64,000 bases of DNA from Pelomyxa schiedti. Lineage: Eukaryota > Protista > Evosea. The translations under genes and the position numbers were made by a program. This document shows, piece after piece, positions 8,416-56,069 of the stretch (positions within the stretch are counted from its first letter, which is position 1; each line of letters opens with the position of its first letter). The DNA lies in contig JAHLWZ010000193.1 of assembly GCA_020536535.1 (NCBI GenBank), positions 1 to 64,000 on the forward strand, read 5' to 3'. The notes below the pieces were generated by a model. It had not been told where the DNA came from. It saw only the letters and a program-made list of their open reading frames with translations, and ran no database searches.

Positions 8416-9945
8416 TTAACCTCTGTGTGACGGACGGATGCGGTCAGCGGTGGAGTTATGGGAGGAATGACCTTCGACGTCGGGTGGCGGAAGCAATCTC
8501 TTCTGTTCATCCAGGAACGTTTTTTGGGCTGCAAGGGGCAAAGCGTGGAACACCGAGTCGACGATAACACCATGAATCATTTCGGTGGTAAGAATGCCGA
8601 AGCTCCACACGTCTCCTGTGTTTAATCTTAGGAACTTAGTGGAAGGAATGAAGAAGAAACCTTTGGATGTGTATTCGTCTGTGAACATCTGTGGTGACAT
8701 GTAAAGTGGTGTGCCCGGGCCTTTGGTTTGCGTGTGCTGTTGTTGGACTGCAGCTTGAGAATTCATTCCACGAGACACACCTTTGAGAAAGTGTGGGGGG
8801 CAGCCTTACCAAGAATAAACACACCAAAATCGCATATTTTCGGAGTTCCGTGTGAATCCAAAAGGACATTGTTACTACTGAGATCTCTGTGCATATAATT
8901 TTGCCTGTCATAGGGAAAGTTTTGTGTTTTGATTTATTGTTGAAACTGAAATACCTGTGAATACCATCCATTCCTTTGGAAACACCAAGTGCAATGGCGG
9001 CAACTTCCTGGAACTTCAATCGTTTCTGTTTTTGCGTTTGTAATGTCATGGATGGGAAGCAGATAAAAACCTGGGAAAGAAGATGCCTTAGACTGCAAAA
9101 CATGAGCTCGGACACAATGAGTAATTTCCCGGATTCTGTGGTGCACGTCCCTAGGCACTTCACAATGTTGGGATGCCTCAAACCACTCACAATCTGTATT
9201 ATGTATTTAATTTGTTTGGTTTTGTTCAGCGAATATAAAAGTTTAAAAGATTTAAAAGAAAGAGTTGGAAACCTCTGCTTCAAGCCTGAAGCGGTCAACG
9301 TTGTAATCTGATATAATCACATCGTGAAGTGACTTTACAGCAACTTCCCTTGATGATGGAACGTGTGTCCCTTTGAACACAGTCCCGTAGGACCCACTCC
9401 CCAGGGATGTTGAAATTTTCAGGTCCGTTTCTTGTATGGCCAGTACAGGTGTCATTCTCACATTCACCTGCAGTTGTTGTTCACCGTTTGATAAATCTTA
9501 TTGTTGGCCCGGTGTTAGCCAATTGCAAGAGAGAAAGGGGTGGAAAAAAACCCGCTGATGGCAGAAGGGATGACAATGACAATGTGGTCCCTGTCAGCGG
9601 TAGTTCGGTGTGGGTATCATTGTTGGAGTTCGTCTGTCTGGATACTGCCACAACCTGGTAGTTTTCATCAACTCCAAACCGCTTTTCTATTTCCATCTTC
9701 ACAATCTTGTTGGAGATGAGTTCTCATGGATATTAGGGGTACTTGCCTTGTCAAATGGACATAAACAGCAAAATGAATCTTGAAATGTAATCTTGTGCCG
9801 GTCCAATGTGATTGAAACTTCCTTCATCACACACTCTGATTGTTGTGTTGAGTTCTTCTGATCCGGTGCTGCTGTGACGTGTCTTTCCCCTTCTGGTTGG
9901 TGTTCTGGAGGAGAAGGACGTGCTGGTAAAAGGGACTTGACCCAA
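8416..9945 (-). CDS. Cytoplasmic TKL-type Ser/Thr protein kinase (MLK/Raf-like catalytic motifs), multi-exon.
   Basis: Exon translations on the minus strand: LGSGSYGTVFKGTH…VAVK (9252..9467); HPNIVKCLGTCT…LLIVSELM; ALGVSKGMDGIHR|QNYMHRDLSSNNVLLDSHGTPKICDFGV (spliced across a 49-nt intron near 8840-8890); GTPLYMSPQMF…DVWSFGILTTEM (8416..8778). Confidence 0.8.
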
Positions 9946-10080
9946 GATCCTTGCTGAATGTGCTGCAGAATGTGGTCAATACCTGTTATTTTTGGTTAAT
10001 TTTTGTTGGTTGTTGATATTGAGCACGGCAACAAACATTACATGCACGAACACACATTCTTCCTGCTTCTTGAATAGCCA

Positions 10081-11164
10081 TCACTGTTTTAGAGAGAGAT
10101 CATTAATGGTTGTGATTAAGATGGGTCGCACACTTTCTGTTTGTTCATCAAGTTCCTGTTTAACTTTTGTTGTATTCAAAGCTTCATTCTGCTCTGATAG
10201 CTTTGCAACCTCGTTTTTGAGCCGACTAATCTCATTTTCCTGTCTCTGCAGCCGGCCAACTGCCGAAAAACAGTCCCCACCGCCTCCAAGCCATTGAACC
10301 ACAATGGTTGGTTTGTCTCCAGGCACTATGAAAACTCCATCTTTCTGCAAAGTTCCAGTCTGGCTGGTTTTTAGCGTCCCCCTATAAGTCGTGAATGTTA
10401 CTATGCCTTGGCCAACACCATCGGCTGTGAAAGAGCCCATGAACATGTCTCCATTTGGCCACTTCTTGGTTCCATATGTTGGCGCTCCCATTTCCCAATC
10501 ACCAACAAACGAGGTGCCGTCGCGTGCCCAGGTTTTCGTCCCCGAGCCATGCTCCTGCCCATACGCCCAATCACCTTCGTACGTGGTGCCATCGCTCCAT
10601 ACCCTCACGCCCTTCCCGTGGAACATGTCGTTCTGCCACTCCCCAACATAGCATCCCCCTTCTCCGCTACCAAAGAGCATGCTCCCTGTGCCGGTTTTCA
10701 CGCCGGTCAAATTTCCCATGGAAGATGTCGCCCGTGTCCAGCGACCTCAAAGTGCCATACCCGTGCCGCTTGTCCCACTTCCACTCGCCCTCATACACCG
10801 TCTCTAGTGTGACATAGTCATCATTGGCGCCGCTCCTCACTTTCGCCATTTGCACACCCCACCCGTGCTTGTAATTTGCGCCGTCTCTATCGCTCTCCTT
10901 CCATTCGGCGTCAACCAGTTCGTCATGGGTCTCCCATGTGCCCTTGGCCCACGCGCCACCACGCCACAGGCCTGAGTAGGAGCCCTCACTGCTGTCTAAC
11001 ACACCCCACCCGTCCCTCTGGTTGTTGAAAAACTCGCCTTCGTACGTGGATCCGTCAGGGTAACACAGAGTCGAACGACCTTGCAACGTAATGTACTGAG
11101 GGCCCCTGTTGGTGGGCCTTCTCCCCCTGTACATTGTTTCGAAACAAAACAGTTCTTCGACCAA
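10081..11164 (-). CDS. MORN-repeat protein (≥8 MORN-like YxGxWxxGxxHGxG units) with a C-terminal coiled-coil. Reading frame breaks near 10700.
   Basis: ORFs 10667..11164 and 10081..10719 (minus) both encode MORN repeats (YEGEWKWDKRHGYGT… / YVGEWQNDMFHGKGVRVWSDGTTYEGDW…) but sit in frames offset by +1 and overlap at 10667-10719. The tail reads …RLQRQENEISRLKNEVAKLSEQNEAL. Confidence 0.75.
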
Positions 11165-11476
11165 TTTGACATGGAGATTTGTGTTGTTCCCAAAATTTGC
11201 TAAACGATGTGCCGCAGTAACAGCAGTTTTTGTGCCACGGTAGTTTCAGAGGAGCTAATGATGCCACAAATTGGTCTAGAGCTAAGAGATGTACAAATGT
11301 AAACCGCTTTCGTACACTCACTTCGTCGTTTCGCCGATGCATTGATGTTTCCTTTTCGTCGTTCAAACGAACTCTTGGAAATCAAAAACCAAAAACCAAC
11401 GACGGTTAATTTAGTGGTGCTGGCGGAACCTTGTTAGCTGTCCACAACGAATAAGTCGAGACCGCAACCTATTATT

Positions 11477-14400
11477 ATGGTGCTACGTTTTGTGGGCATA
11501 GTAACTGTCGTGTGGTTTTGTGCAGCAGGACCATGGACAGGTGCGCGAGGTCGGGTGATCGTCTCGATGGGTGGGAGTAAGTACTTTGGAGACGACGGAT
11601 CGAAGATGTACTCGTCAGTTACGCGGCCGGGGGCCGTTGGGGAGTGGGAGCAGTACTGGCAACCGGGGCTGGCCTACGGCGGCACCAAGGACGACTCGTC
11701 CTCGTCTTTTTGTATATCGGCGAGGTCGTGTTCGTCTGACAGTTGGTGCGTCTACCCGTGCTCCTGCTTCCCTGACCTCGCGGATTCTTTGGACTGTCCA
11801 TACCGTATGTGGGCTTTTTTTTTTTTTTTTTTCGCCCAGTTTTTGTATTAAGGGACATCTAGCGTATCCAATGGTTAATACTACTGTGTGGAGTCCTATG
11901 TGGCCGGAGGCTATGAGTGGCGAGTATGACAACGTCACGTTTGTTGTGCTTAGGGGAAATCCAGATGCACTAAACTCGACTTATTTTGGGGGAGTGTACA
12001 TTGTCCAAATGACTGCCACTGATCGTACGTTGGGGGTTAATACCAAACGAGTTTTCCCCGATTCTGGTCACAACTGCGATTTATCCACTTTGCTCAGTGT
12101 ACCAATCGTTCAACAGTTCAGTGACTCGACCATTCACTGGGTTGTGGTGTGTCAAGGCATTTTGTATTGGTACGAGATGTCAACAGAGGCTGGATCATCG
12201 TTTTACCCTAATTCAACTGTACCACTGCTGGCTCACCCTACCTCATTGCTTCCGTCCAGATTTCTTACAGAATTTCCTTCAATATTAGCCGTGGGTGCTA
12301 CATGGGTCCAGTGGTTCTCTCCTGAATATAGTTCATACCCATACAATGTCACTGTTACTGAAGGTGAACTTATCTTCGCAGCCTCGCATCTGGGTATCAG
12401 TTTTCTTGATCGTTTTCATTTTTCTCACCTGGGTGTAGATACGGCCAGCGTCATCACATGTTCTTCAAAGGATGGAAAAGTGTTTATCAAACTCCATTTT
12501 TGTGATGGCAAAAACTTTAATTGGGTCTCTCAAACACTCTATTCGTGGGATGAATCAACTGAGGTCTGTGCACTCACTGTGGATGACCTGCAGGAGTCTG
12601 TTCCACTTGACGACATGATAATATGTATGACGTCTAACTGGCTTCATTGGCTGGTGAGAGACGAATCATATGACTGGCAGGTACATTGACACTGACATTG
12701 TTTTAGCCACCTAATTTAATAGGTATACAATGAGAGTTTTCCATCCAGCCACCCGTCCCTTACTATTATTGCCTCGAAGTACTTTGTCCAATATTCTTTT
12801 TTAGCTGAACGTTACTTAGAGATCAGCAGACCTCGACTTACTCCTTGCTTCTTGCTGATAACTACACATTTTCGGAGATTTATCTTGAATTTTCCAGTTG
12901 TACCGACTTCACAGATTCTTCCCACTGTGTATCACAAGGGTGCAGCTGGTGCTTAAATGTCTGCCTCGATGAATGTCCAGACTGTTCAAGTTACAGCGAC
13001 TCAGACAGTTGCCAGCTGTTGTCTCTTCATCCTTTCCTCTAACCTGCTGATGCACTCAATAGGGATCATTGCGTATGGTGTGATCAAACTTTATCATGCC
13101 AGCAATATTGTACTGTATGCAGTGCTTTAGAGGTTGGCACCTGCAGGTGATTACTCTGTCCTCTTTTCTTTCGTTTCTATTTACACTGCTTCCAGTGTTA
13201 GTGGTTGTATGTGGAGCGATGAGTTGTCAACCTGTATGGCCCTTGAGGACTGGTGCTATTCATGTTCAGGAACCAAGTGCGAATATCCTTGTTTGACCTG
13301 CAACTCAGATATTTGCTCTGCAATTCAATGCCAAAACTGTTCAAATATCACTGAAGAAACCCACTGTTTAAAAAAGTAGATCCTATATCACTCTCCTAAT
13401 TGTGACTCTCGTTCCTAAGCGCAAATTTGTGCACCTGGTGCTCTTCTCTTCAACAATGTCAGTCCAATTCAGCTTTCTCCTCCTACGCTTGTGATTGCTC
13501 CCACGATAGTACTTGCAGCTCTTCTGGCTGCTTTTTAAACACTACCGTCAAGCAGTGTTTATCACGATGTCTAAACCACTCTGCCTATAGCAAGGCATCA
13601 TTTTTTTCTACGTACATTCAGTCTGCTCATTACTCTGAAACCACTGATATTGTCTTTGATGATGATGGCAGTATGACCCTCCTCAGATTTATGTTGCTCA
13701 CTTCTTTTGGCAGATTCTTATATCCTTCATAGAGAGGGGGATGCTCCTCTCCTTCTGAAGGTAAACCCAAGTGGAGAGGTGATACAGTCACCTAAAACCT
13801 TCGATAGAACTGGTTATGGCAAGGCCCTTGCACTTGATCCGGCCACAAGATTACTTTACGTAGTTGGTTCTGGCCAGAACGTGCCTCTTCTCACTGAAAA
13901 TGCGCCGCAAGGACTACTACAATCCATTGTGCCGTCCACTGTTGATGCTGCAATCCTCGCCTATGATATTGATGTAATGAATATTGTTTGGAGTGTGAGA
14001 TGGGGAGGACAGAGTTCAACTGAAGAGTTTATGGACATCGTTGTGATTGCAAATAAATACCGGTATCTAAAGACGTTGTAAAAAGAAACGTAACATGAAA
14101 TGGCCACAGAATTCTTGCAGGAAATGTACCATGCGATTTTCAAATTTTGTGGGGCTCATGTGCTAACTCTTGTGGAACCTCAATGAGTGGTCTTATCCTA
14201 ATTTTTGACAATTCAAATGACTGGAACATGCTGCATTGCGAATATACACCCAGTTACCTTCAATTTCGATCGTCTCCCCACTTATCGTATACTTTAGCCA
14301 CCAGTGATACTGTTGCTGTTACTTTAAACTCCCTTTCTGCCAAAGACAACGACGGTTCTCTTTCTGTTGCCGCTCTCGGAACTGTGCAGACTAGTAATGA

Positions 14401-17400
14401 TATTGACTGTCTTGTTCTTCTTATCTCTTCAGCTGACGGATACAACTTTGTGTCTCATTATACAATATTTGGAAGTGATGTATGGGAATATGGCAACCAC
14501 TAATGAGCTCATCATTGGACAGCAAATCGATTCTTGTTCAAAAATATGGGTAGAAAAAGATATTGCCTATATATCAGGTTCTGGATATGCCGGCTTTGCG
14601 GGGATGCAGAATGGCAAATCTGTGTCGAAGTTCCCTGCTACATTTGTGTCCATGGTGAGATGTCATGACCAAGAAAATTCATTAATTCCTGCAGATGAAC
14701 ATGAAATGGTGGGAAAATAGTTCCCTTCCGCAGGCTGGGTTTTTCATTAGTGGTCTCTCTGCAATAAATGATATTGTCGTATGGCAGGACTATCTATACT
14801 TTGTTGGATCAGAGTCTTCTAGAGGCTTGGAGGCTGCCACTGTTGGTAAGACATAAATTATCAACAAACCTCTATTAACACACGTAGGGCGGTTTGCTCT
14901 GGGTGATGATGGCAGGCTATCTTCTGGACTTGTGGATACGAAAGAGAGCTTTTATTCCAGTGGGTCAAGTTCATTTTCTGACCTATGTGTTGGAACCCGG
15001 ATTTACACGGCTGGTTCCACCACAGCATCTGACTTTATCACAACGTCTACCTACCTCTCAGACGGTATTTTTCTTTCTTCGTTCGTGAGACTGATTATTT
15101 GCTAGGTTTCAAATATGCCCTCATTGTTCTTGCAATTTCTACTGAAGGTTTACTCATTATTTCCTAAATACTCTATCTTAATTAGCTAGAGTCAAACTTC
15201 TGTGTTCCAGTCTTTCCGGCATATCCGGAATCAACAACTGAAATCTTCTTATACTATAACGAAAATAGCAGTGAGCCGGTGATTTACTGGTGTGGTGATT
15301 TACGAACTTGGTGAAAAGTCTCAATTTACCAAGGCCCGTTGTCAAATTTGAGTGGAGCGAAGCATATATGGGGAAGCCCTGCAATTCTTGCGTGAACTAT
15401 ACTGTACAAATTTCGAACCACAACGGCATTACAAATGTACAAACGTATCACTAAAATAAATCTAACAACCTTATTCAGATTTCTGCTGGAACAAATCTTA
15501 CTACTACATATACCTTCCCACTAGAAGAAACTTCATACTGGAGTTGGCATGTAAAGGCTTGTGACAGCTCTACTTGCACTTCATCACTTGAGTCCTCCGT
15601 TTCACTAACTATTGGTGAGTTGTGAAGATATTTGATCTCTTTCTTCTTGGGAGCTTACTTTATTAGAACCACATAAATGGAGTACCGACTTAGCTGATGA
15701 AGGTTGGGCCTCATCTTGGAGTGGTGGCCAAATATCCTTTCCCTCTAATGATGGCACTGACACTACTTTTCTTCGCTTTACTGCAACTGAAGAAACGGAC
15801 TCGTTTGAAATAAATTTTTCCACAGACCACTATCTTCTTGATGTTGGCACTACATGGTAGGTCCAATTAAGTGAAAAAACTTGCAGTTTACATTTCTTAG
15901 GATTTCTCTAAAGATAAGAGCCCTGAATTGTAACAACTTTAAGGTGCTTCTTAACTCATATTCTTCCCATACCAACTTTAGAGTAGGAGGGACCAATTCT
16001 ATTTTTACGTGATTACAACAATAACTATACTCTGTGGAATGCTTCAAGCTCCTTCATCCCACTGGGTGGAGAATGGTTATTCTCTATAAGAAACCAAAAT
16101 ATTTACTTTTCATTAGGTACACTATCTGCTTTCCAATGGATAGAAGTGTAATTACCGTATTCAATTGGGAAATGGATTCCTCAGATGAGTATCAGTCTGC
16201 ATGGACAGTGAAACTTACTCTCTCTGGGTTTCTGAATGATACTGAGGGAGATTTTATGGTGGAGATTGACGACTTCTTCCCGGTTGCCCACTGCGTTCCA
16301 TGTATACAAAATTGGTACTTGTAAAGACAGAGTACCTGAACTCTTCCAGATCTTGGAAATTCTTCTGAGGACAGTGAAGAGGGGCTTTCAAAAAACTCCT
16401 CAGAAGGTATTGACTGGAAAATGCTTGTGGAGATATGTGTACCAGTTGGTGGTGTCACTGCAATTATCATCGTTGTAGGCAGTGTGACAATAACAGCACT
16501 TGCATGTCGACGATTCAACAAGTAGCAACTAGATTTTTACCTTAGTGTAACTCTTGCTAGAAATAAAGAGAATTCAAAGAAACCTGAGCAGGTATGGACA
16601 ACCGGTGTCGAGCTTAATCCTATTGATACCTTCAATGATACTAACTCGATGTGAGTGTACAGTTTCCTTCACTTTCACTTATTTTTGTCAGTTTGGTGGA
16701 ACACTCTGCCTTCCCAATTTCGTTCGACGATTTTACATTAGCCTTCCAATATTCTACAAGACAAGCTCCAGTAGGAGAAAGCATCAAGCAGGATTTAACG
16801 TTGACAAATAACTCCGATTCTAAGTTCACCATTAAGTTCTTCCCACCAGAGAGGTAGTCACTCATTCTTTGCCAAACCTCAAATACTCTGCAGTGCCAAA
16901 GTGTCCTTTAACTTTGACCCTGTTACAGTGCTTCTCAAACCAGTACGTAAATGTGTCTTGGTTTCTTGCTTATCGTCACCCAAGGGAGAAGAAATGGTTG
17001 TTACTGCTACTGCCTTGATAACTTGCACAACAAGGCTAGATATGTATCTAATTGCTGCTGTATCACCACATAGTACTTGGAAGGATCCAATAAAGCACAC
17101 AAAAATACCTGTTGTATTGGAATCCAAGCTGTCAGCCAAGCTAGGTACTATAGCCTGCTGGAGTTATCTCCTAACAGAATCAAAGATCCAGATGAATTCG
17201 TTGTTTTCACCCCGGCAATTGGAGAAGGTAGCTTTGGTTCTGTATACAAAGGAGAGTGGAGAGGTCAGCAGGTTTGTTTCCGCCACATTCAACTCAAGAC
17301 CAACCTGTACAATAAGGTAGCAATCAAGGTTCTCAAAAATCAGTCATTTAATGATGCATCGGTGAAAGCAGAATTCGAGCACGAGGTGGGAGTCATGGAG

Positions 17401-18763
17401 TCTTTCCGTTCACCCTATATTGTTCACTTTGTAGGCATGGTGTCCTTTTACCATCATTTTCTTTGACATGATGGGTAGGGGCTTGTCACATACCTGGGAA
17501 ATTAGCTATTTTAACGGTTTTCATTCATGCTTAGCCTGTAACTAAGCAGAGATAGGAATTTATTGCAAATGGAAGTTTGCGATCCTGCTACCTCAAGAAT
17601 ACATTATCTCTCCCCTTTAAGGTAAAGTGCCTTTTAGATGTTGCCAGAGGTATCCATTACAACCAAGACATGCATTCCACTTATGTACCCCAGGAATGGA
17701 TTACCTTCATCGATCTGCAATTTTACACAGGCACTTTACCTTAAGGGGTTTTTTTCGATCTCCCTTATTTTACTTAGAGACCTGAAACCTGATAATGTAT
17801 TGATGTCCGCTGTAGATTTAACCTCTCCCGTGGCTTGTAAATTGGTTTGCCCTCAGGAGACGTGTACATCAATTTCATAACTGGCCAACAGATCGACTTT
17901 GGCACCACTCGAGATATTAACGTGTCACAAGCAACACAATTCTACACAAGAGGAGTCGGCACTCCCGTTTGTATGCTTTCGTATTCTATTATTACACTGG
18001 TTTACTTGTTTTGTTCAAGATATGGCCCCTGAAATTCTGGATAATGGGAAATACAGCCAAAGTGCTGATGTATTTAGGTAGCCAAAAAACCTCTGTTACC
18101 TGGTAACTGTACGTCACCCCAATTAGTTTTGCAGTTACATTTTGGTCACTTCTCACTGGATTGGATCCCTATGTGGAATCCCGGTTTTCCACAAGCTGGA
18201 AAATCGCGGATTTCATCATTAAAGGAAACGTAGGCCCACAATACTCTCCCATAACCTCACTCTGACACGATTTGCAGAGGCTGGCCATCCCTGCTGACGC
18301 CCCAGCTGATCTTTCTGCACTCCTCTCCAAGTGTTGGGCAGTGGAACCACACGAGAGGCCCAAGTTCTCAGCAATTGTTGTGCAATTGGAGACCAAGTGG
18401 GTGGACTTGATGCAAGACAAGCGGCTCAGGAAGCAAAATCCATTAACCCGCAAGAAAGTAGAACAACCACAGCTTGCCCCTGTTCCGGATACAGAACCTG
18501 CCCCTCTCCCAGAAGAGGGTGGGGTGGCCATGGAGAACCTGATTAAGAAGAATCCGAATGATGGGAATGACACACCTCAAAACAATCACCAAGATGGAAG
18601 AAGCACTCCTGATGTTGACCTTGGGAATCCCCCTGAACCTAAGAAGCCAGGGAAAAAACACACCCATCATCACCATCGGAGACACCACAGGCACAAGGTT
18701 GCTGATTCTGATTCCAGTTCTGGCTCTGCTGGCAATAGCAGTGATGACGATTATGATAAATAA
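11477..18763 (+). CDS. Receptor-like TKL Ser/Thr kinase, paralog A (≥20 exons). Domain order: signal peptide; large Cys-rich ectodomain with possible β-propeller-like repeats; TM helix (~16440-16520, ICVPVGGVTAIIIVVGSVTITALACRRFNK); MSP/PapD-like juxtamembrane module (~16650-17150); kinase domain (17200-18450); His-rich tail (HTHHHHRRHHRHK).
   Basis: Signal peptide MVLRFVGIVTVVWFCAAGPWTGARG. First intron has a gtatgt donor at about 11808 and a T18 tract. Kinase motifs were assembled across introns: IGEGSFGSVYKGEWRG | VAIKVLKN | GMDYLHRSAILHRDLKPDNVLM | IDFGTTRD | YMAPEIL | KCWAVEPHERPKF. The exon-by-exon architecture matches paralogs B and C. Confidence 0.8.
11813..11832 (+). repeat. Poly-T homopolymer (about 18-20 nt) in intron 1 of receptor kinase A.
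   Basis: Run of T at 11813-11832 directly after the gtatgt donor. An analogous T-run sits at the same intron position in paralog B (41375-41392). Confidence 0.9.
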
Positions 18764-18855
18764 ACACAACCATTTTTCTGTTGTTCTTGCTTTTTTCAGT
18801 TGATTACAAAAAAGGCCAAAAAAGTTTAATTTAGTAATTTGACTTTCTATTTGTT

Positions 18856-45268: not shown

Positions 45269-48200
45269 ATGCCCCGGAGCGCCTCGTATGTCGTTGGCGT
45301 GTCAACTTTTGTCGCTGCGGCCACCGTCCTCCTCCTCGTACAATTAATCTCGGGCGCCGTGGGTACGACGCCTTACTGCATCAACGTCGTCGGCTACTTC
45401 CCGTACAACTTCTCGTACCCCGACTGGTACCACGTCATCCCGGTTCCGATCGTGTCGTGCGACGTCGTCAGCACCGCGTTCATCGACGAAGGATACCTGT
45501 CGCCGGCGTACACGCCGCAGATCGACGGCGTGTACCGTACGCTGAAGCTCGCGTGGTGGGTGTCGCTAAAGACCACGCCCTCGCCCTCTTTGCCGAGGGA
45601 CGACAGAGGAGTGTTCTACTACGACGGCTACGAGACTGGCGTGCACAACGGCGTGCGGGTTCGGTTACCCGCGGAGCAGGATGACTTTGCTAATCTGGGT
45701 GGGGGTGCTGATGTGGATTATGGGACTGCGGGTGACTCCTATGGTGCTTCTGTGAACGAGCCGAGGTACTACCCTTACTCGATGGAGTATGGCGCTGGAC
45801 GGCCCAGCGTGTTCACGACCGTGGACAATGGCGAGGATGGGGATGGATATGAGCATGTGGAGGTGCGGGATATTACTACTCGCGCTGGATCCTCTGATTC
45901 AGAGTCGTCGTCGTTGTCGTCTTCCGACTCCGACTCCGACTCTGACTCTAGCTCCGAATCTGATTCCGAGTCGGAGTCTAGCTCGTCATCTTCGGAAGAA
46001 GTATTTCCCTGTTTCTTCCCGCCATAAGCACTAATCGTAGTAAAGGTAGTGCAAATTCCATTATACAAGAGGGCTAACGGCGTGCACTTTGCTGCTGTTT
46101 GGACTGCTTTTTCAGTTGCAAAACCTATTTAGTATGCCATTTCCCACTAAAAGAAAATTCTCCCTTAAGTGAGCCCCTAGCATGTTCTGCACACAACAAA
46201 AGTCCGTTTCAAGTAACAGTATTCTAACCTGTGTTCAGCACCTCAATGACGGTCACTGGACTAAGCGCATCGGGCCAGGCTCCTACTTCAGCTAGCTTCT
46301 TCAATATCACTATTTCGTGCCAGGAACCAGCTGTTGTAGCAGCATCTATGTCTCTTATGCTCAGTGACTCTTCATCTATAGTCACCTTTGCCCCTCGATG
46401 GATGTGCTACACACCTGGTTGTCCTTCTTGGTGTTCATTACATGGGGTCTGTGACACCCTACGCGGAACTTGTGTATGCAACGAAGGATGGGAGGGCACT
46501 GATTGTGCGATAAAAGTTGTGACAAACTGGGTCTTTTGCCCCCAAGACCCGATCATCGTCTCTTATGAAATACCGTGAGTTCTTGCACCCTTCCAAAGTG
46601 ACTTGAATAACTCAACTCCATCAGGTACACCACAAGTGGAGTGACTGGGACAGGCAACTCAATGTTTATGACAATCGTCACGCCTTTAACCCCTATAGCA
46701 TATGATTATCGCTATTTCATGACCTGGGCTACTGTTGTTCCGTACCTTGCAACGGAGGGATATAACAAAGATTACTCCGGCACTCATCTGACACCAACGT
46801 ACTTGGCTCCAGGGTCGTATTATATGAGGGTTTCAAATGACCTGACTGATACTGTTGTACTACTGAAGCAGATGACAGTTAAAAGTTGGGCAGCCTGCAA
46901 TATTTCTGCAACTTGCGGCAACGGCACCAACAACACTTGCAACAGCGAAACCGGTAAAGGCACCTGTGTAAGTGGTTCCTGTCAATGTGCTTCTGGGCGG
47001 TTTTGGTATGACTGTTCCAGGGGCTGCTCTGGCCTTGCTTTATCGTCCTCAAAATCCGGAGAAGTGAGGTCCGACTACCCAACAAGCGGTAACATTGATG
47101 ATATGCGTGATTCTAGTGTTATGTCAACCTGCTATTGGCTTATATCCCCACCCGATAGCTATGACGAAATTGTACTCAATTTCACATTTGTGGGACTGGA
47201 CTACATTGGGGTACTTTACGTATACAAATCTGATGAAAATGCTTCTGTTGGTGAACTTGTTATGACTATTAACAGACTGGCTCCAGCGCCTAAGGGTATC
47301 AAAACTCGGCACGTCCTCGTTGTATACGAAAAACTTGCCACTATGAGTACACATGGATTTGCTCTTTCTTACTATACACATAACATACCCCTTTCTGGAA
47401 TCGCAATCGGTTTCACGGTATTCTGCAGTATCCTTGGGGGGTTGATACTGGCAACGGCAGCTGGAATTGCCATTTACTTCCTTGTAAAACGACAAAAACG
47501 GTTGAAATTGCAAGCTATGAACGAGCCAGCTGTTGAAGAAGATATGATGACACCCGAAGATCTTGCTCATGATAGAGAGAAATTTGAAGGGCAGAAGGAA
47601 GAATTCGTGGCTGCTGGCTTCCAAGTGGACAAGACACGATTAATGTTCTCTTTGAAGCAAACCGATCCCTTCCCAATAAGAGAACAGCGGGAGGATCTTC
47701 TGAGTATATCTAATAACACGGGAAGAGATGTACAATACTGTATTTTCGTTCCAAAACAAGAATTGCTGATGAAGTTTGCCGTGAAACCGGGCAAAGGAAA
47801 AATTCCAGCTGGCGCAACCATGGTGGTTGAGATTAAATTGGAACTATTCTACACAACCCATTTTGACTACCCCATCCGAATTGAAATTACTTCCTCCAAC
47901 GGCACAGTACAATGCATGCACATAGACGTCAAATTTGAAGGCGCACACTCTGTGTGGATTGATCCAGAAGATATTCGCTTAGACCAAGAAATAATTGCAT
48001 CTGGAAGCTTTGGGTATTTAGCCATGCTCCCATGTTTTAAATACTGGGTAGCTCACCTGAATTAGGAGTGTTCACCGGGGAGCCTACAAAGCGCAGATGT
48101 TAGCTATTAAAGTACTAAAAGATCAAGAAGGGTTAAGTGATAAAGATATCGAAGAGTTTGAATCTGAATGCAAGCTCTTGAATCAAATTCACCATCCAAA

Positions 48201-49837
48201 GATTGCCCAGTTTATTGGAGCTTCCCACATTCCAGGTGAGGCACTCCCATGACATACACATGGGTGTTTAATCTTAAAAAGGTAAACTATGCATATGCAC
48301 TGAACTTGTGCCAAGTGGCAATTTGGCAGCTTTTCTAAGATCTCCAGCGGAGATACCCTTTATTCTAGTGCTTAAATGGGTTCAGAACGCTGCTGAGGCG
48401 TTGAAATTCTTACACCAAAACAAAATTCTTTATGGTTCGTCCTGCAACTTTTGTTGACTGAAGTTTTAAGTATCACAAGGTGACCTGAAATGCGCAAATT
48501 TGCTTCTTGTCTCCACAGCAATAGATGCTTCAGTGAACTGTAAACTAACTGGTTGAACTCCTCCTTCCTGGAAAAAAACTAATCTTTTCTAAAGATTTTG
48601 GCACTGCTCGCACTGTTGAGGATATTGGTGCGTAACTGCCACTTCTCCCTCTGCCCCCTTAACGTTGTCCAGATCAACCCAAACAGTACATCAGTCCACA
48701 AGGAACACAGGCTTACTTGGTTATCTACTTTTTCGCAGCAAGTTCTTCTGTTTAACTATAATCTTTGTAGGCTCCCGAAATTCATAGAAATTCCAAAGAA
48801 GCAGAAAAAACTCAGTTGAACTATGCCGTAATCTTTTCTTTCCTTTTTCTTTCCTCTCAAAGCCCCCTTCACTCCAAAAGATCGATGTTTACAGCTTTGG
48901 CATTTGCATGTGGGAGATGTGGGCTCGCCAAGAACCTTGGAACACGTTGCTTTTATGGGACATCGGACCCGCAGTTGTTGCCGGGCAGAGGCCGCACATA
49001 TCGTCGCGGTGCCCCGAGATGTACGCGGAACTAATGAAGCGATGCTGGGCTGATACTCCCAACGATCGCCCACACTTCGACACGATAAACAAGGAGTTGG
49101 AGTTCTGGATCAAGCCCGCGATAGAGTACGTGAGGATGAACGTGCAGAAGCACAAGAAGGGCGTCCTGACGGTCAACACGTTTGCTCCCACGAAAACCAG
49201 CGGCGCCAAGACCAAGACCAGCGACGCGTTCTCAATCAACAGCAGCGGCTCTGGGTTCGCCAGCAGCATATACAACTTTGCCAACAGCCCCACTCCCACT
49301 GGGACCCCCAGCTCCAACTCGGCGGCCGACGCCAAGGCCGGCGGCGCCAAGACCAGCGGCAGCAACGCCATGACGAACTCCCCGGCGTCGAGCAGGACGT
49401 CCAGGGACAAGACAGGCCGGGCAAAGACATCGAGGACGAACAGGGGCAAGACAGGCGGGGGAAGGGACGATGACGGAATTGAGATGGAGCCGCTGGGCAG
49501 CAAGAAGACAGCGTCGGCTGCGGACGAGGCCACGTACGAGTCGCTGTCTGAGGAGCAGAAGGAGGAGGTACGGAAGCTGGCCGCGATCGTGTCTACCAGC
49601 AAGAAGCACGGGACCCAGGCACTGTCGAACACGTCTGGGGGCTCTGGGGTCAGCAACGCCACCACAACGTCTGGCGACACAAACAAGTTCAAGCAGCTCG
49701 ACGCCACGCTCAACATCCGCGGCCGCACGGTGATCAGCGGCACCACCGCAACATCGACAACAACGACACCCACACCACCAGTGTCAAGTCTGGCCACAGC
49801 CAAAGTAGTCCCCACTGGCAAGAAGGACAACGTGTAG
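45269..49837 (+). CDS. Receptor-like TKL Ser/Thr kinase, paralog C, immediately downstream of B. Same ectodomain–TM–MSP-like–kinase layout; exon 1 carries an acidic (SD/SE)n stretch; C-terminal Ser/Thr/Gly-rich tail.
   Basis: ATG at 45269; signal peptide MPRSASYVVGVSTFVAAATVLLLVQLISG. Exon 2 (46231..46578) aligns with the paralog B EGF-like exon (CSLHGVCDTLRGTCVCNEGWEGTDC). The 474-aa exon 46641..48065 carries the CUB-like stretch, TM helix (IAIGFTVFCSILGGLILATAAGIAIYFLV) and MSP-like stretch (KFAVKPGKGKIPAGATMVVEIKL). Kinase exons: SGSFG|…YKAQMLAIKVLK… | DLKCANLLL | DFGTARTVEDI | APEIH | ICMWEMWARQEPW…CWADTPNDRPHF. Confidence 0.8.
45895..45996 (+). repeat. Acidic (Ser-Asp / Ser-Glu)n coding repeat ([37 protein letters not shown]) at the end of kinase C exon 1.
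   Basis: tccgactccgactccgactctgactct… periodicity. A gtattt donor directly follows at ~45996. Confidence 0.6.
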
Positions 49838-49984
49838 AAAACATGACACACCACGCTGCACTCGTACGTTACTTAACTGTAACACCAACAATGTACACAC
49901 CTCTTAAAACAGCTCCTTATCTTTTCTCGGTAGCAGCTCCATCAAAAAAAAAAAAGAAGGAAAAAATAGGCGACCGAAGTTTGG

Positions 49985-52224
49985 ATGTCCCGTAGCCCCT
50001 CACCGTTGCCGCTTCGGCCGACGCCGAAGCACTTCGGGGGAGCAGTGATTCCCCCGCCGCTTCCAACACCCACTCCCCCAGCGACCTCGCCCAGTCCCTC
50101 GCCGCCCTTGCCCCACGTCTTCCCGGTGGCGAGGAGCTCGCTGTACAGTGTTGTCCCGGTCGTGCACCTCACCTCGCCCCCTACTCCCCCCCACCACCAT
50201 CACCAACAGGAAACAACCCCGCCGCCGCCGCCGCTGCAGCAGCAACTGCCCAGGTACGTACCCGCCACCGGAGGGGGCTACTACCCAGCGAGCCTGGCGC
50301 CCCCGCCCATGCCCTCCCCGGCCCTGTTCGCCACGCCCCCGCCTACGCCCTTCTCGTCGCCGCCCGTGTCCCAGCCCACGGGGGACTCGTCGCCCTCGCC
50401 TTCACCTTCGGCGTCGCCCTTCGAGTCTCCGTCGCCCTCGCCGCTGCTCCCCGGTGCCGGCGTCGGGGTGCCATCGTTGTTTTCCGACACAGCGTCGCCC
50501 CCGCCCCGCCTCTCCCGCGAGGAGTCGCCGCCCGAGCTGGCCGATTCTGGCTCGGCCTTGTCGCCCTTGCAGGATGACGCCATCGGCGAAACAAAGGTGC
50601 AACCGAATTATGATGGAGGGCATGGTGGAACAACCAATTGTGAGTCCAGTCCCAGAACGAATGTTGCTTGTGCACCTCCTCAAGTCCCAGTTGTGAGGAA
50701 TACTTCACCAGAAGGTTGAAGTTTTCGTGCCTGGTTTGGCACCAGTATTAAACGTTGTGTGCTCACCATTAGTTTTTCAGATGCCACTACTCTGTGGGCA
50801 AGGGAACTCATTTCATCCCAACAGCAACTTTATACACTCGCCAACGAGATTGGCAGAGGTGCCTATGGCATTGTTTTGTGTGCAATCCAAACTTTCCGTT
50901 GTAGAGTGCTTAACAATTCGTGCATTTCAGTTCCGGGGTGTGTCTAAGGACTGGAGCAGCAGTTGCCATTAAGCTTATAGAAGGATGCTGTGAGAATGAA
51001 AACGAATCTCGGAGATATATTCGAGAAATTAAAATCATGAAGTATTTTGCACAATCCAGTCACGTAAGACCTGCTTTATCAAGCCAATAATAATGTGTTC
51101 TCAGGTCCTTGGTCTGATTGACATTTTTCCTCTGAGTGAAGGAGGACAAAAATTTGCTCATATGTAGTTTGACTTTTTCCTTTGATTTTTTCAAATTCTG
51201 TGTACAGAGGAATCGTATCAGAGCTCATGGACTGTGACCTGCGAGCATTAATTTATGAAAGGGGGCCTATCTCGCCTGAGCAATGTTGTATTTTAATGTA
51301 TGGGATTCTGTGCGGGGCCCACGAGATTCATTCAGCTTGTATTGTACACAGAGATTTGAGGTTGGCTTCCCTTTTCTTTTGTGAAATTGATATTCACTTT
51401 TCAGACCAAAAAACATTCTGGTTAAAGGCAATCATGTGAAAATTTGTGATTTTGGACTTTCCCGGGGTCAGTCACATCGCATGAGTTTGCTGGCAAACCT
51501 TTCTCATCAGTGGTACACTGCTCCAGAAGGTTAGTTTACTTTCCTAAACGTTCTAAGACATTACAAAATAAATCTCCACAAGGTCTTTTCAATAACAACT
51601 GGTTATATTCCCATAGTATGCACAGTCCTTAATACTTGCGCAGTTATACAACCGCTGTTGATGTGTGGAGCTTGGGTTGCATATTTGCAGAAATGCTAAC
51701 TCAACAGATTTTATTTAAGGGAGAATCTCGAGGCAACTCCCCTCACTTTTTCTATTCGCGGCTCATCTCTTATAGTGGTGCGGCAGGCTGAGAAGATTTT
51801 TCAAATTCTGGGGACACCTAGTGAGGAGATAATAAATAAAATATGTGGCAAGCATTCTCGGGTAAGTCTGAAACACTGATGTTCTTATCCAGTTAACCAG
51901 TTTACAGTGGCTCCCACAGCTTCAAGTTCTTCCTTTTTACCCGGCTACTCCACTGGAGAGTTGCTTTCCAAATGTTCCTTCAGAAGGTATAATCACTCTT
52001 CTTGCAGAATAAACTAACTTGCCATATGGTACTGGATAGCCATCAATCTTCTCCGAATGATGCTTGCTATCAATCCAGCTGAGAGAATAACTACAACAGT
52101 AGCCCTAGCTCATCCATACTTTTCCAAACTTGTGAAACTTCCCAGTGATGAAAAACCTCTTGTGTGTACAGTATCAACCACAACCCAAATCAAACTAAAT
52201 TCTCCAGAAACCAGCACCTGTTGA
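49985..52224 (+). CDS. CMGC-group MAPK-like Ser/Thr kinase with a ~240-aa Pro-rich N-terminal extension. ≥8 exons; the first exon 49985..50714 splices in frame to 50781.
   Basis: Kinase motifs across exons: IGRGAYGIV | AVAIKLIEG…REIKIMKYF | [15 protein letters not shown]…[11 protein letters not shown]|[21 protein letters not shown]…WYTAPE | [19 protein letters not shown] | [13 protein letters not shown] | ALAHPYF. The phase-1 donor GAAG|gt at 50714 and acceptor cag|AT at 50781 give …[14 protein letters not shown]. Confidence 0.75.
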
Positions 52225-52782
52225 TGTTCCTGGCGTGGCCACTTCCCCCCAAATTCTAAAAGGTAAATACTCCTGTATGGCTCTTGGTTTGAGCCCAAGA
52301 TATTTTTTAATCATAGAACTTCACAAAGTAACTTTTTCCCTTACCAGAGATGCTGTATCAGGAGTGTATAACAACGGCAGCAGTAAGTACAGCGGCATTC
52401 AGAAGTATGACGTCAGCATCCTGTTGGTCATCACTGAGCCTCAGCCACTCCTGACACCACAGGGTAGATAAGGTTGTGTTAGTAATTTTTGTCTTTTTGT
52501 AGAAAACACCGACACACCTATGTAATCCAAATTTAAAACATTTTCATTGGAAAAGAACAGACAGGATTTTCCTGTCGGGAAGCGACCGCATCTAAACAAA
52601 AAATCTATTTTTTTTTCCCTTTTGATTTTTCGTGCAACAACAGCATTATTAGAAAGAAACAAAACAAAACCACACGAGCTCAATAACTCTCGGGTGCTAC
52701 GCGCGCCAACCACCACACAACCGGCACCTACTGTATATTAATACGTCGCCACCCACCCATACTACAAAAATAAACCCCAAGC

Positions 52783-55700
52783 ATGCACACGCTTTTCAAA
52801 AAAAAGAGTAGCAGCAGCCAAAACAGCCCGACGTCAGCAGCGAATGGTGCTAGTTCCTCGTCGTCGCACCACTCGATGTCCTCGTCGGCCAACTCCATCA
52901 ACATCGCCAGCGTGTCGGCGTCCACCTCGTCGTCGTCGTCAGGCACGCTCTCCGCCTCGGCCCTTAACGCCACTTCGTCCCCGGCACCCCCCACTTCCCC
53001 AACCATTGTCTCGTCCTCGGGCATCACTATCCCAAAGCTCCAGCTCCCCGCCTCTTCGCCCTCAGCCCCAATCCCAATCTCCTCCTCCTCGTCCTCCAGC
53101 AACCCTGCGACTTCCTCGTCGATCTCGACGCCGTCGCAGGCCGCGCACCCCAGCAAGTTCCTCAAGCTGCCCCACTCGCACTCCAACAGCAACAGCGGCA
53201 GCACCAGTGTGCCGGCGGCCACGTCGCAGCCCAACTCCCCGACGCTGCCCCCCGCGGCCTCCTCGTCGTCGTCGCCGGGCGGCGGTGGCAGCAACACACC
53301 CCAGTCCGGATCGCCGTCGCGCCCGCGCAAGGGCCACCACCAGGGCAAGACATACTCGATGGCCGGGGCCGACGGCGTGCCGCAGCAGGTCACGATGCCC
53401 AACACGGCGCGCGGCTACCACCGGGGGGAGGAGGAGGCCTGGGGGAGCTACGACCAGCAGTCGCAGTCGCCGTCGCCGTCGCCGAGCCCCCCACTGGATA
53501 TGCCCAGCCCCCGGCGGGGCCCGTCCAGCACCACGCCGCCTACGTCGAAGAGCCCCAGGGACCGGGAGCGAGACAGGGCGAGGAGCCCGCACAGGCACAA
53601 GGGGCCTCCTGCGCCGACCGAGCCGATGGTGGTTCTCACACACTCCACGGGGTGCCTGCCAATGTCCGACAAGGAGGGCAGGATGTCCATGTCGTCTTCT
53701 GGCAGTTCGAATGTGGACGCTGGGATGCTGTCGGCTAGCATGGGCACTGGTGTCATGGAGAGGCCAATGAAGCACAACTCACACCATCACCATCACCGCC
53801 ACCACACAACAACCAGGCACGGCAGTGCCAATGTTGGGGAAGACAGCGGCAGTGGCAACAGCACCCACCCGCGGCGGCGCTCTTCTTCTTCTGTTGTTCC
53901 TCCGTGTCTGTCGCCGTCCATGTTTGTTGGTGCGGATAGACCTGGTCAAAACCAGTCTCTACTCCCGCCTTCCTTAGCTCTCGCTTCAGCTTCGTCACAT
54001 GACAGACACAGTGGATCCAAGAGTATGAGATCAAAAACTGGAAGCAGCAGAAGAGTGAGTGTAGGACGGGAAATGGGAGAAGATACTGACTCTGGAGCTG
54101 ATATTGAGATTGGTGACCCTGAACAAACCATTTCCTTCCTGGACAAACTTGGTGGGAATTAGCTTCATTTATTTACTCTTTGTTCACACCCAGTAGGAGA
54201 AGGTAACTTTGGTTCCGTTTGGAAGGCACAACATGTCTCCGGAAAGATACTTGCTGTCAAGAAGGTATTGCACCACCATCCAATCACAGTAACCAGTCCA
54301 CAGGTTCCTCGAGATGAAGCTCTTGAAATTACCAAGGAAGTCGATTTCATGAAAGACCTCAGAAAGAGTTCTTACCTTGTAAGGTGAGATTACTTTTTCT
54401 CCATCTTCTTCTAGACGTAAAAACAGGTACTATGCGAGCTGTAATGTGAAGACAGAACTGTGGATTGTGATGGGTATAACATATATTTTTCACTCGTTCT
54501 TGTGGTTAATGCCTCATTCTAGAGTATTGTGCTGCTGGCAGCTTACGAGGAATGATGAAAATTTGTGGGGTACCCTTCCTTTTTTTGGTTTTTTAATTCA
54601 ACGTCACTTAGCGAAACCTGTCTGAAAACGAGATTGCTGTTGCTACATGTCATATGCTGAGGGGTTTACATTGTCTACATGCCTCAAATAAGCTACACAG
54701 AGATATAAAGGTAGTTACTTTTGTATCTATTTTACATTTTTGATTCGTGAGAGGCTGCCAACATTTTGGTTGATGGGAATGGGATTGCAAAACTTGCTGA
54801 TTTTGGTGTGAGTGGTAATGGCAAACAACATCACACCATGATTGGAACACCCTTCTGGATGGCCCCTGAGGTTTCCCCATGCTCCCTGTAGTTGCCTTAA
54901 CACGTCAAAGATTATTCAAGACCTTGGATATGATGAACATGCTGACATTTGGTCTCTGGGAATTACATGCATTGAATTGGCTGAGGTAACGAATCGTGGG
55001 TGTAAAAAATGTTCCAACCTGTGCCAAGGGAGAGCCCCCGCACTTTGACGTTAATCCTATGAGAGCAATGCTACAAATACCCAAATGGGATCCGCCAACA
55101 CTGACACACCCAGATAAGTGGTCCCCAGCGTTCAATAACTTCCTTGCTCGATGCCTCGTGAAAAATCCTCACCAAAGGTCGTACCATTTACTCCCCTCTT
55201 TGTACTCACCTTTCAATGAAGACCGCTAAGTGCTGATTTACTGATGGACCCTTTTGTGAAACCTGCAGAAAATTCATCTCTTCTTGGTGAATATTTACTT
55301 CCTCAGTAATCTATTTTGACTCCAATCAGAACTAGTACAACTACAAGAACAAATGCGCCCATTGCAGGCACCGGAGCCAACAACGCCTCAACCCTCAAAG
55401 GACCCCGGTAATCTTGCCTCTTCACATGGGTCAAACTCGTCGTCATCATCCATTCTTGGAAACAAAGGCGGCAGCGTCATGTCTACTCCAGTAGGCGACA
55501 GTGATGCCGACCTCGACATGAGGGGGCTGAGTGGAATTTGGAGCAAGTTTGTGCTAGATAACCCAGCACTGGTGGGAGGAGCAGATGCGGAAGGTGAGGG
55601 TGATGATGAGTTGGAGGTAGGTGACGAAGCGGAAGATGGAGGCACAACAACAGAGGGTCAGAATTCTGACCTACAGACACCACGCCACTCCAGCTGCCTC

Positions 55701-56069
55701 GAGTCAACCACTCCACAACACTCCTCGTTCGTATCCACGCCAGGAAGCGGCGGGGTGACACCCCTGAAGCCAACCTTTATTGACCTGCGATCCGGATTCA
55801 CATCACACCAGCCCCAGAACAACGCAGCGACTCCTGGCACGCCGTGCTCACAGTGCGAAGACCTAAAGCGTGAGAACAGTCAACTCAGAGCCGAACTGGA
55901 CAAAGTTATGAAACTCAATTCGCAGCTGACACAGAGGCTGGAAGAAGCCGAAGAAGAAGTTCTAAGCGCAAAGGCTGATGCGGATAGAATCCGTGGCGAA
56001 TTTCAGGCCTACAAGAAACTCGGCAATTCCCTCGCCTTCAACCATGAGCCCACCATCTTACGATTGTAA
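52783..56069 (+). CDS. Hippo/MST-type STE20 Ser/Thr kinase with a ~455-aa Ser/Pro/His-rich N-terminal extension and a C-terminal SARAH-like coiled coil. Multi-exon; first exon 52783..54151 splices in frame to 54194.
   Basis: [24 protein letters not shown] | …LHRDIK|[21 protein letters not shown]…[11 protein letters not shown] | [15 protein letters not shown] (recalled MST1/2: HRDIKAGNILL…[12 protein letters not shown]…[11 protein letters not shown]). C-terminal [54 protein letters not shown]. The phase-1 join …DKLG|VGEGNFG was verified. Confidence 0.8.

Follow-up and report, generated by a model that had tools for sequence, protein, structure and literature searches.

The 64,000-nucleotide stretch of DNA that we analysed (hereafter the window) belongs to the already published nuclear genome of Pelomyxa schiedti, an anaerobic amoeba of the Archamoebae, and it encodes six protein kinases: one TKL kinase most likely joined to MORN repeats, three receptor TKL kinases, one MAPK-family kinase and one MST1/2-class (Hippo) kinase. 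We read it, with a probability of about 0.8, as a gene-dense, ordinary genome segment whose kinase density comes from expansions in Archamoebae and from local duplication, and not as a functional cluster. The region is ordinary, with two minor curiosities, the MAPK-family kinase (K5) and the MST1/2-class kinase (K6). About 18 genes were counted in the window, kinases making up about one third of them. In a six-frame scan, four kinase HMMs picked up kinase exons at six places only, and Pfam recognised Pkinase/PK_Tyr_Ser-Thr in exactly six gene models and no kinase domain in the remaining gene models scanned. The sole extra HMM match, at 25774-25986 (i-E 0.01-0.17), was rejected as a chance 'GYTAPQ' string. 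A preliminary description of this DNA had rightly reported kinase genes across 8416-56069, and the groups it gave them (TKL, MAPK-like CMGC, Hippo/MST-class STE20) hold on structure-database matches, for K3 through its identity with K4; its headline figure of seven kinases has to be lowered to six, the number that its own list contained. The kinases and associated features are the following.

8416-11134, minus strand: K1, TKL kinase gene that lacks a membrane segment and most likely has MORN repeats at its N-terminus (gene model and Pfam)
8473-9443, minus strand: the six kinase-domain exons of K1 (exact protein-to-genome mapping; Pfam E 2.7e-42)
11477-18763, plus strand: K2, large receptor TKL gene (Pfam PK_Tyr_Ser-Thr E 4.7e-56)
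17176-18457, plus strand: kinase-domain exons of K2, with HRDLKPDN, DFG and APE and two GC-AG introns (mapping)
41038-45025, plus strand: K3, receptor TKL gene (Pfam E 2.5e-42; 5' exons modelled here)
45269-49837, plus strand: K4, receptor TKL gene (model exactly NCBI KAH3765664.1; Pfam kinase and EGF)
49985-52224, plus strand: K5, MAPK-family kinase gene without TxY, eleven exons (Pfam Pkinase E 8.7e-55)
51405-51529, plus strand: activation-segment exon of K5 (structure-database and homolog alignments)
52783-56069, plus strand: K6, eleven-exon STE20 gene of the MST1/2 (Hippo) class (Pfam E 4.5e-54)
55845-56033, plus strand: C-terminal CxxC and coiled-coil tail of K6, at the usual place of SARAH (profile tests)
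56241-57191, plus strand: stand-alone MORN-repeat protein, single ORF (Pfam MORN E 1.6e-11)

The gene models of K1, K2, K3 and K5 were built in this analysis, and those of K1, K3 and K5 have no exact match among deposited proteins. Introns measure 39-79 nt consistently across the kinase genes, and their statistics agree with those published for the genome, with short GT-AG introns and some GC-AG ones (PMC8887013).

The P. schiedti genome comprises 52.4 Mb and 19,876 proteins, which amounts to ~24 genes in an average 64 kb (PMC8887013). Under a Poisson model of chance, with a kinase fraction of 2.3-5% assumed from other amoebae (the P. schiedti kinome is unpublished), 0.02-1.3 windows with at least six kinases are expected genome-wide, and 0.2-6.6 on the same assumption when the K3/K4 tandem pair is taken as one event. 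The enrichment is real but modest, and only modestly unusual in view of the kinase expansions of the lineage and the tandem duplication: some of the largest orthogroups of Mastigamoeba and Entamoeba are kinase families (PMC8136499), and Entamoeba carries large families of transmembrane kinases (PMC2880585). The source of the density would thus be the TKL and receptor-kinase expansions of Archamoebae, with local duplication added. Given these known expansions and a genome already published, we attach little weight to the density itself.

K1 corresponds to the cytosolic TKL of the preliminary description and has no transmembrane segment. Its model spans 8416-10719, and more MORN repeats lie in register in an ORF at 10667-11134, parted from the model by a 1-nt frameshift near 10700-10712. 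By the criterion of repeated YxGxWxxGxxxGxG units (PF02493), MORN repeats are recognised both at the K1 N-terminus (E 1.9e-11) and in this ORF (E 3.9e-8). We regard K1 as a probable MORN-kinase fusion, because Pfam finds MORN and Pkinase in the single K1 model and because MORN repeats, linker and kinase follow one another in P0139, an annotated paralog, too; the MORN set at ~10.1-11.1 kb most likely makes up the N-terminal part of K1 and is not a separate protein. Two MORN proteins had been described beside kinases; the repeats are real, but one set probably belongs to the K1 gene, and the other protein, although only 171 nt downstream of K6, falls beyond the range 8416-56069 given for it. The catalytic loop of K1 reads HRDLSSNN and is followed by DFGVSRG, and the best PDB matches of its kinase domain are TNNI3K/CTR1 (~96 bits) and ABL1 (95 bits), so that its TKL placement is ambiguous. 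The MORN repeats would probably anchor K1 at a membrane.

The three receptor TKLs that had been proposed are borne out by K2, K3 and K4, single-pass proteins in which a transmembrane helix follows a Cys/EGF-rich ectodomain and precedes the kinase, and with TKL kinases as the best matches of K2 and K4; signal peptides and transmembrane segments were called by hydropathy. K2 has a putative signal peptide (11477-11545), a Cys-rich ectodomain, a transmembrane segment (16445-16507) followed by RRFNK, and its stop at 18763; we infer the 5' extent that joins the signal peptide to the same gene. Its kinase domain matches CTR1 best among PDB entries (146 bits), followed by MLK4, TNNI3K, ROCO4 and BRAF. 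K3 combines a signal peptide (41038-41124), an EGF-like/Cys-rich ectodomain, a transmembrane segment (42939-42995) and a kinase (43500-44626) with the motifs YRDLKCSN and DFD where DFG is expected. K4 is laid out with a signal peptide (45269-45364), EGF (46420-46506), a transmembrane segment (47430-47486) and a kinase (47946-49132) that has DFG and, being a non-RD kinase, YGDLKCAN; its PDB matches are CTR1, DLK, MLK and TAK1. K3 and K4 are collinear, with 33% identity over ~950 aa (E 7e-157) and 41% between their kinase domains, on which the TKL placement of K3 rests, and they have no similarity at the DNA level. Judged from their protein sequences, K3 and K4 arose by an old tandem duplication. 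Pfam recognised nothing beyond EGF in the ectodomains of these two. The predicted order in K2, K3 and K4 is signal peptide, Cys/EGF-rich ectodomain, transmembrane segment, beta-rich juxtamembrane domain and kinase, and such proteins would presumably be sensors of extracellular cues.

The kinase domain of K5 occupies ~50831-52122, with one GC-AG intron at 51733-51775. MAPKs account for all 60 of its best matches among solved structures (AtMPK6 at 209 bits, ERK5, ERK2, p38beta), the alignment to MAPKs runs end to end with the CMGC insert included, and every named database match is a MAPK or NLK; the suggestion of a CDKL-like class is not sustained, the top matches all being MAPKs. Three replacements set K5 apart, namely LAN for TEY, HQWYTAPE for TRWYRAPE and HRDLRPKN for HRDLKPxN. 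Its L-A-N aligns to the T-E-Y of AtMPK6, and the two arginines of TRWYRAPE are Q and T. Of the nearest homologs, 108 had a loop that was readable; ~100 of these show T-x-Y or the NLK-type TQE, TRWYRAPE occurs in 85 and HRDLR in none. The activation-loop string reported earlier is exact in the sequence and lies in the single exon 51405-51529, and the absence of TxY noted with it is confirmed. The proposal of a missed exon fails, since one exon runs from DFG to APE and a transcript of Mastigella eilhardi aligns across it without gaps; moreover, the K5 locus holds no other candidate with TxY plus APE. This transcript, P0364, is the K5 ortholog and the only closer full-length relative found (47% identity overall, 76% over the activation-segment exon); it has HRDLRPKN and MSLLSNISHLWYTAPE in common with K5, and its activation-loop motif is L-S-N. 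We conclude that K5 is a conserved TxY-less MAPK variant and not the product of a missed exon, because the Mastigella transcript has all three changes. Furthermore, a 227-aa metagenomic fragment, P0369, has HRDLRPKN and a TxY-less loop, as K5 does. In ERK2 the two arginines of TRWYRAPE bind phosphotyrosine, and the common-docking acidic motif is DPSDEP; after the kinase domain K5 has LPSDEKP, and a motif of this kind is missing from the Mastigella ortholog. With neither TxY nor the phosphotyrosine-binding arginines, a canonical MAP2K would be unable to switch K5 on. K5 keeps all catalytic residues and is probably active under different regulation, perhaps through a conserved Ser of its 'MSLL' segment.

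K6 has its kinase domain at ~54145-55255. In the NCBI model the protein begins at Met 53395 and the exon-2 acceptor is at 54197; our model gives the deposited protein P0001 ('serine/threonine-protein kinase 3 [Pelomyxa schiedti]') but for one splice-site residue. The kinase domain scores 260-265 bits against STK3/STK4 (MST2/MST1) and at most 200 bits against MST3/MST4/YSK1, MAP4Ks, SLK/LOK and TNIK, a margin of 64 bits over the GCK-III kinases (264 against 200 for MST3/4), and its top database matches are MST/Hippo kinases, with 50-55% identity to amoebozoan and animal MSTs; the Hippo/MST-type STE20 assignment is therefore well founded. In the alignment to MST2, a Thr of K6 falls on the activation-loop autophosphorylation Thr of MST1 (T183). 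Of the SARAH-like coiled coil that had been reported, the coiled coil stands, but SARAH is undetectable: Pfam gave no match to PF11629 at E<=1, a custom SARAH HMM scored the annotated protein at -1.4 bits compared with 48-61 bits for the MSTs of Acanthamoeba, Balamuthia and Physarum, and hhalign of the K6 tail profile against the SARAH profile returned a probability of 1%. The tail is conserved in the P. schiedti paralogs P0003 and P0004 and in the Mastigella eilhardi homolog P0005. K6 thus appears to carry a Pelomyxidae-specific CxxC and coiled-coil tail in place of SARAH, and this tail probably takes over the role of SARAH in dimerisation for trans-autophosphorylation. SARAH is the defining criterion of Hippo/MST in the literature (PMC7035326). 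Hippo/MST kinases are further characterised by a position upstream of MOB1 and the LATS-NDR kinases. The holozoan and amoebozoan context in which Hippo/MST had been placed fits, P. schiedti being an amoebozoan, but the use of K6 as a phylogenetic marker loses its basis because SARAH is absent from it.

A bolder interpretation of K5 and K6, which we hold tentatively and at somewhat short of an even chance, is that Pelomyxidae (Pelomyxa and Mastigella) rewired two deeply conserved signalling kinases, MAPK and MST/Hippo. If so, a MAPK subfamily without loop phospho-acceptors and phosphotyrosine-binding arginines, and with HRDLRPKN, would work independently of MAP2K, and in MST/Hippo a new CxxC and coiled-coil module would have taken the place of SARAH, the domain for dimerisation and partner binding, uncoupling the kinase from Salvador/RASSF-type partners. 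Both variants seem to be undescribed so far, and a full-text literature search on Archamoebae MAP kinases and on atypical MAPKs lacking TxY returned nothing relevant. We consider these results of modest value for research on signalling evolution: a conserved TxY-less MAPK lineage offers a natural experiment on how a MAPK is regulated independently of MAP2K, and a practical lesson is that a coiled coil C-terminal to an MST-like kinase needs a profile test before it is labelled SARAH.

Several of the six kinases might instead be pseudogenes or catalytically dead pseudokinases, the density then consisting partly of decaying duplicates. The 1-nt frameshift within the MORN region of K1 would fit this, as would HRDLSSNN in K1, DFD together with an A-x-G-x-x-G loop in K3, YGD for HRD in K4, and the missing TxY and HRDLRPKN of K5. 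However, all six kinase reading frames are open over 6-11 exons, the VAIK Lys is present in six of six, and K2-K6 show the catalytic Asp, the Asn and the metal-binding Asp, the state of K1 being less certain as its C-lobe diverges. Moreover, the unusual features of K5 and K6 are kept in expressed Mastigella transcripts, HRDLSSNN is common to several annotated paralogs of K1, and the K1 frameshift may be an indel error of the single-cell amplified assembly. We consider decay unlikely, and infer catalytic activity for K3 (DFD), K4 (YGD) and K5 from their sequences.

It is very unlikely that K3-K4-K5-K6 and the MORN gene downstream constitute one co-regulated signalling cassette in which receptor TKLs feed a MAP4K-like STE20 kinase and an atypical MAPK. 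These four kinase genes of three groups do lie head-to-tail on the plus strand (41.0-56.1 kb), with spacers of 243, 147 and 558 nt and 171 nt from K6 to the MORN gene, and STE20, TKL (MAP3K-like) and MAPK kinases are tiers in one canonical cascade. On the other hand, Pfam on the models and the six-frame kinase HMM scans found no MAP2K (STE7) in the window, by which K5 would not be activatable in any case, the adjacency of K3 and K4 is accounted for by duplication, and short spacers are the usual gene density of this genome (PMC8887013). The same-strand run with its short spacers may leave room for co-regulation; the analysis turned up no sign that these genes act jointly. That the high count is an artefact of miscounted kinase-like exons or of a collapsed or chimeric contig is hardly credible: although seven kinases had been announced over a list of six and the genome was made from amplified single cells (PMC8887013), the six kinase domains are complete and far above Pfam thresholds, K4 (exactly) and K6 (all but the one residue) are deposited NCBI proteins of one 115,595-bp contig, and K3 and K4 form no DNA-level repeat.

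The kinases resemble several known systems. The TKL group (plant Raf-like/CTR1/STY, animal MLK/TAK1/TNNI3K) supplies the best matches of K2 and K4, and of K1 jointly with ABL1, but identity to plant and animal TKLs is only ~30-35%, and the architectures of K1-K4 (receptor; MORN fusion) differ. Entamoeba histolytica, also one of the Archamoebae, has in its EhTMKs large families of receptor kinases that cross the membrane once and combine a Cys-rich ectodomain with a TKL-like kinase, in some cases with non-canonical catalytic motifs (PMC2880585); K3 and K4 differ in their EGF-like modules and in the beta-rich domain that lies ahead of the kinase inside the cell.

For K5, the atypical MAPKs ERK3/4 (S-E-G) and NLK (T-Q-E) likewise have activation loops that depart from T-x-Y, and tobacco MPK4L, another MAPK with an altered motif, has M-E-Y (PMC4892734); such a departure in K5 implies regulation other than dual phosphorylation by MAP2K. 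Unlike all of these, the L-A-N of K5 keeps neither phospho-acceptor, and K5 also replaces both TRWYRAPE arginines and the Lys of HRDLKPxN (by Arg). K5 has no specific kinship to ERK3/4 or NLK, its best matches being ERK-type MAPKs of plants, fungi and algae (40-43% identity).

Like K6, MST1/MST2 (STK4/STK3), Drosophila Hippo and Acan-Hippo (GCK-II STE20) have a helical C-terminal tail after an unstructured linker. The tail of K6 differs from theirs in its CxxC and in a coiled coil ending in an 'ANLYKGQ..FEKL'-type motif, and, unlike the SARAH of MST/Hippo, it is common only to the two P. schiedti paralogs and the Mastigella eilhardi homolog; K6 differs further in an activation loop four residues shorter and in a long Ser-rich N-terminal extension.

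The density of kinase genes pointed out in the preliminary description is largely real and was miscounted. Six-frame scans with HMMs from STE20, TKL and MAPK sets gave kinase matches at six places only, and Pfam gave six kinase domains (E 1e-39 to 1e-56) and none in the other gene models scanned (PTH2, FG-GAP protein, vault-PARP-like, USP9X/24-like deubiquitinase, Mog1 and DSP-CBM20 phosphatase), so that the "seven" of its title is wrong, while the six itemised in its text are correct and their group-level classification is right. The sole HMM match elsewhere, a candidate seventh kinase at 25774-25986, was a chance GYTAPQ string and was rejected as spurious. The six kinases (K1 to K6) and the features discussed with them are as follows.

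8473-9443, - strand: kinase exons of K1, a TKL with HRDLSSNN and no TM
~9500-9850, - strand: beta-rich pre-kinase domain of K1
10700-10712, - strand: K1 MORN frameshift, a single base between two MORN-repeat ORFs
~11477-18763: K2 gene, receptor TKL
~16700-17140, + strand: beta-rich pre-kinase domain of K2
17435-17478 and 17731-17777: GC-AG introns
41038-45025: K3 gene, receptor TKL
~43050-43500, + strand: beta-rich pre-kinase domain of K3
45269-49837: K4 gene, receptor TKL
~47560-47950, + strand: beta-rich pre-kinase domain of K4
49985-52224, + strand: K5 gene, MAPK-like kinase
51583-51601: 19-nt micro-exon of K5
51733-51775: GC-AG intron
52783-56069, + strand: K6 gene, MST1/2-class STE20 kinase, eleven exons

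Kinases account for 6 of ~18 genes, and the kinase genes span ~38% of the window. If kinases make up 2.3-5% of genes, a range taken from other amoebae that is assumed here and not measured, a Poisson expectation gives 0.02-1.3 such windows genome-wide, or 0.2-6.6 when K3 and K4 are counted once. In Mastigamoeba and Entamoeba the largest orthogroups include kinase families (PMC8136499), and the transmembrane kinases of Entamoeba number in the dozens (PMC2880585). K3 to K6 lie adjacent in series, co-oriented and with short spacers, a spacing that is the usual gene density of this genome; a MAP2K is absent from the window, and we found no evidence that K3 to K6 would constitute a functional cluster.

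The window is an ordinary part of an already published genome, that of Pelomyxa schiedti (52.4 Mb, 19,876 proteins, 7.43 introns per gene; PMC8887013). It is eukaryotic DNA whose GT-AG introns are very short (median 44 nt in 47 hand-curated introns of the window), and tRNA and Rfam scans of it gave no match. GC-AG introns make up 3 of these 47 (6%, on small numbers) versus 1.59% in the genome paper (PMC8887013), and our K1 model holds a possible fourth. The gene models combine hand-curated exons with a model trained on the 47 introns, which mis-spliced the TM exon of K2 and chose a wrong NAGNAG acceptor in K6. The K4 model (1343 aa) is exactly NCBI KAH3765664.1, which is on the same contig as P0001, the annotated form of K6. 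An exact look-up among deposited proteins gave no match for our models of K1, K3, K5, Mog1 and the MORN protein, so these either deviate somewhere from the deposited annotation or represent unannotated genes. Profile searches with K1 to K4 yielded none of the window's own proteins, and the one with K5 yielded no P. schiedti protein; as hit length there seems to be limited to ~1.75 times the query, these absences carry no weight. Elsewhere in the window we observed a vault-PARP-like gene (21309-~26900, +; PARP_reg, PARP, VIT and vWA) and, at ~28870-38112 (+), a USP9X/USP24-like deubiquitinase gene that is very large, with 50 exons or more, the border between these two models being uncertain. 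A further gene (39923-40648, +) encodes a dual-specificity phosphatase domain (Pfam E 3e-23) and, after it, a CBM20 starch-binding domain (E 4e-14). Its product appears to be a laforin/SEX4-type glucan phosphatase in which the two domains stand in the opposite order to laforin.

Each of the receptor kinases K2, K3 and K4 has a Cys/EGF-rich N-terminal part followed by a hydrophobic helix, basic residues and the kinase. The best matches of K2 and K4 are CTR1, MLK, DLK, TAK1 and TNNI3K, and K3 is placed among the TKLs by the 41% identity of its kinase domain to that of K4. The top PDB match in the K4 search, 9p9u, is a tandem EGFR construct with a doubled score and was disregarded. K3 aligns collinearly with K4 across ~950 aa (33% identity), with no similarity at the DNA level, and the two are an old tandem duplication; their catalytic motifs include YRD and DFD in K3 and YGD in K4. 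In each TKL a beta-rich domain of ~110-150 aa without Pfam match lies immediately N-terminal to the kinase. That of K1 was found in at least 8 annotated TKLs of P. schiedti (best E 2e-36), K3 and K4 have theirs in common (E 1e-17), and that of K2 has no significant similarity to those of the other TKLs here.

Two MORN-repeat proteins had been placed next to kinases, and here the reading of the first has to change. In the K1 model the reading frame stays open from the MORN repeats, across a coiled coil and the beta-rich domain, into the kinase, and this first protein is most likely the N-terminus of K1, because P0139, an annotated MORN-kinase paralog, has its parts in the same order. A second K1 MORN ORF upstream is in register but for one base, where GDIFHGKFD resumes one frame over as GVKTGTGSMLFGSGEGGCYVGEW. 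No intron fits the frame change at 10700-10712, which reflects either an indel error in the assembly, made from amplified single cells, or a gene whose 5' part is truly disrupted.

For K5, the loop without TxY, the dual-phosphorylation motif of MAPKs, is confirmed as previously quoted. The CDKL-like class that had been suggested is rejected, as is a CDK class, since the best solved-structure matches are all MAPKs (AtMPK6 at 209 bits, Slt2/MPS1, ERK5 and ERK2). The other proposal, a missed TxY-containing exon, does not hold, as DFG to APE lies on a single exon (51405-51529) and the locus offers no alternative TxY-plus-APE candidate. K5 has L-A-N at the aligned TxY site, TRWYRAPE is replaced by HQWYTAPE, and HRDLRPKN stands instead of HRDLKPxN. 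Among its 120 nearest homologs, with loops readable in 108, ~100 of the 108 carry T-x-Y or an NLK-type TQE and 85 carry TRWYRAPE; HRDLR occurs in 0. Searched exhaustively, the exon matched P0364, a Mastigella eilhardi transcript (76% identity over the exon, 47% over 300 aa), which carries HRDLRPKN and MSLLSNISHLWYTAPE in a loop ungapped relative to K5 and, being a transcript, provides cDNA-level evidence by proxy. The missing TxY is thus genuine and conserved, and we conclude that K5 is a conserved TxY-less MAPK variant. It may also exist beyond Pelomyxa and Mastigella, since P0369, a 227-aa kinase fragment occurring in 11 metagenomic sequences, has HRDLRPKN in common with K5, as well as a loop that lacks TxY (RMSLLQNTTTTSYCAPE). 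The glycine loop, VAIK Lys, alphaC Glu, HRD Asp, Asn, DFG and APE read from the sequence are intact, and K5 is probably catalytically active.

The kinase domain of K6 is clearly of the MST1/2 class and keeps the T183-equivalent Thr. Our model differs by one splice-site residue from P0001 (serine/threonine-protein kinase 3 [Pelomyxa schiedti]): the first intron (54152-54196) ends in a tandem CAGTAG acceptor, at which our manual choice inserts one Val and NCBI uses the downstream AG, giving the canonical LDKLGEGNFGS. Both K5 (49985-50714, +; ~245 aa) and K6 (52783-54100, +; ~450 aa) start with long, Ser/Pro-rich, low-complexity N-terminal ORFs, and their true starts are uncertain, in K6 because the NCBI model begins only at Met 53395. 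The tail of K6 (55845-56033), earlier described as SARAH-like, is not SARAH. Pfam finds none; an HMM built from 45 homologs with PF11629 gives 48-61 bits for the Acanthamoeba, Balamuthia and Physarum MSTs and scores below zero for P0001, for P0003 and P0004, which are its paralogs in P. schiedti, and for the Mastigella homolog P0005; and profile-profile comparison gives a probability of 1%. These four proteins have in common a tail of CxxC, a coiled coil and then A[ND]xx[KR]G[QE]...[FY][EK]KL. The SARAH signal of P0106, a probable Mastigamoeba homolog, was only weak (E 0.0013 in a test of 14 sequences).

Since our literature search returned nothing on a TxY-less MAPK lineage or a SARAH-less MST tail, both are apparently undescribed, small lineage-specific variants. 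The K6 tail probably acts as a dimerisation module in place of SARAH. Hippo is defined in the literature as kinase plus SARAH (PMC7035326), and K6 is therefore an MST-class kinase that falls outside Hippo so defined.
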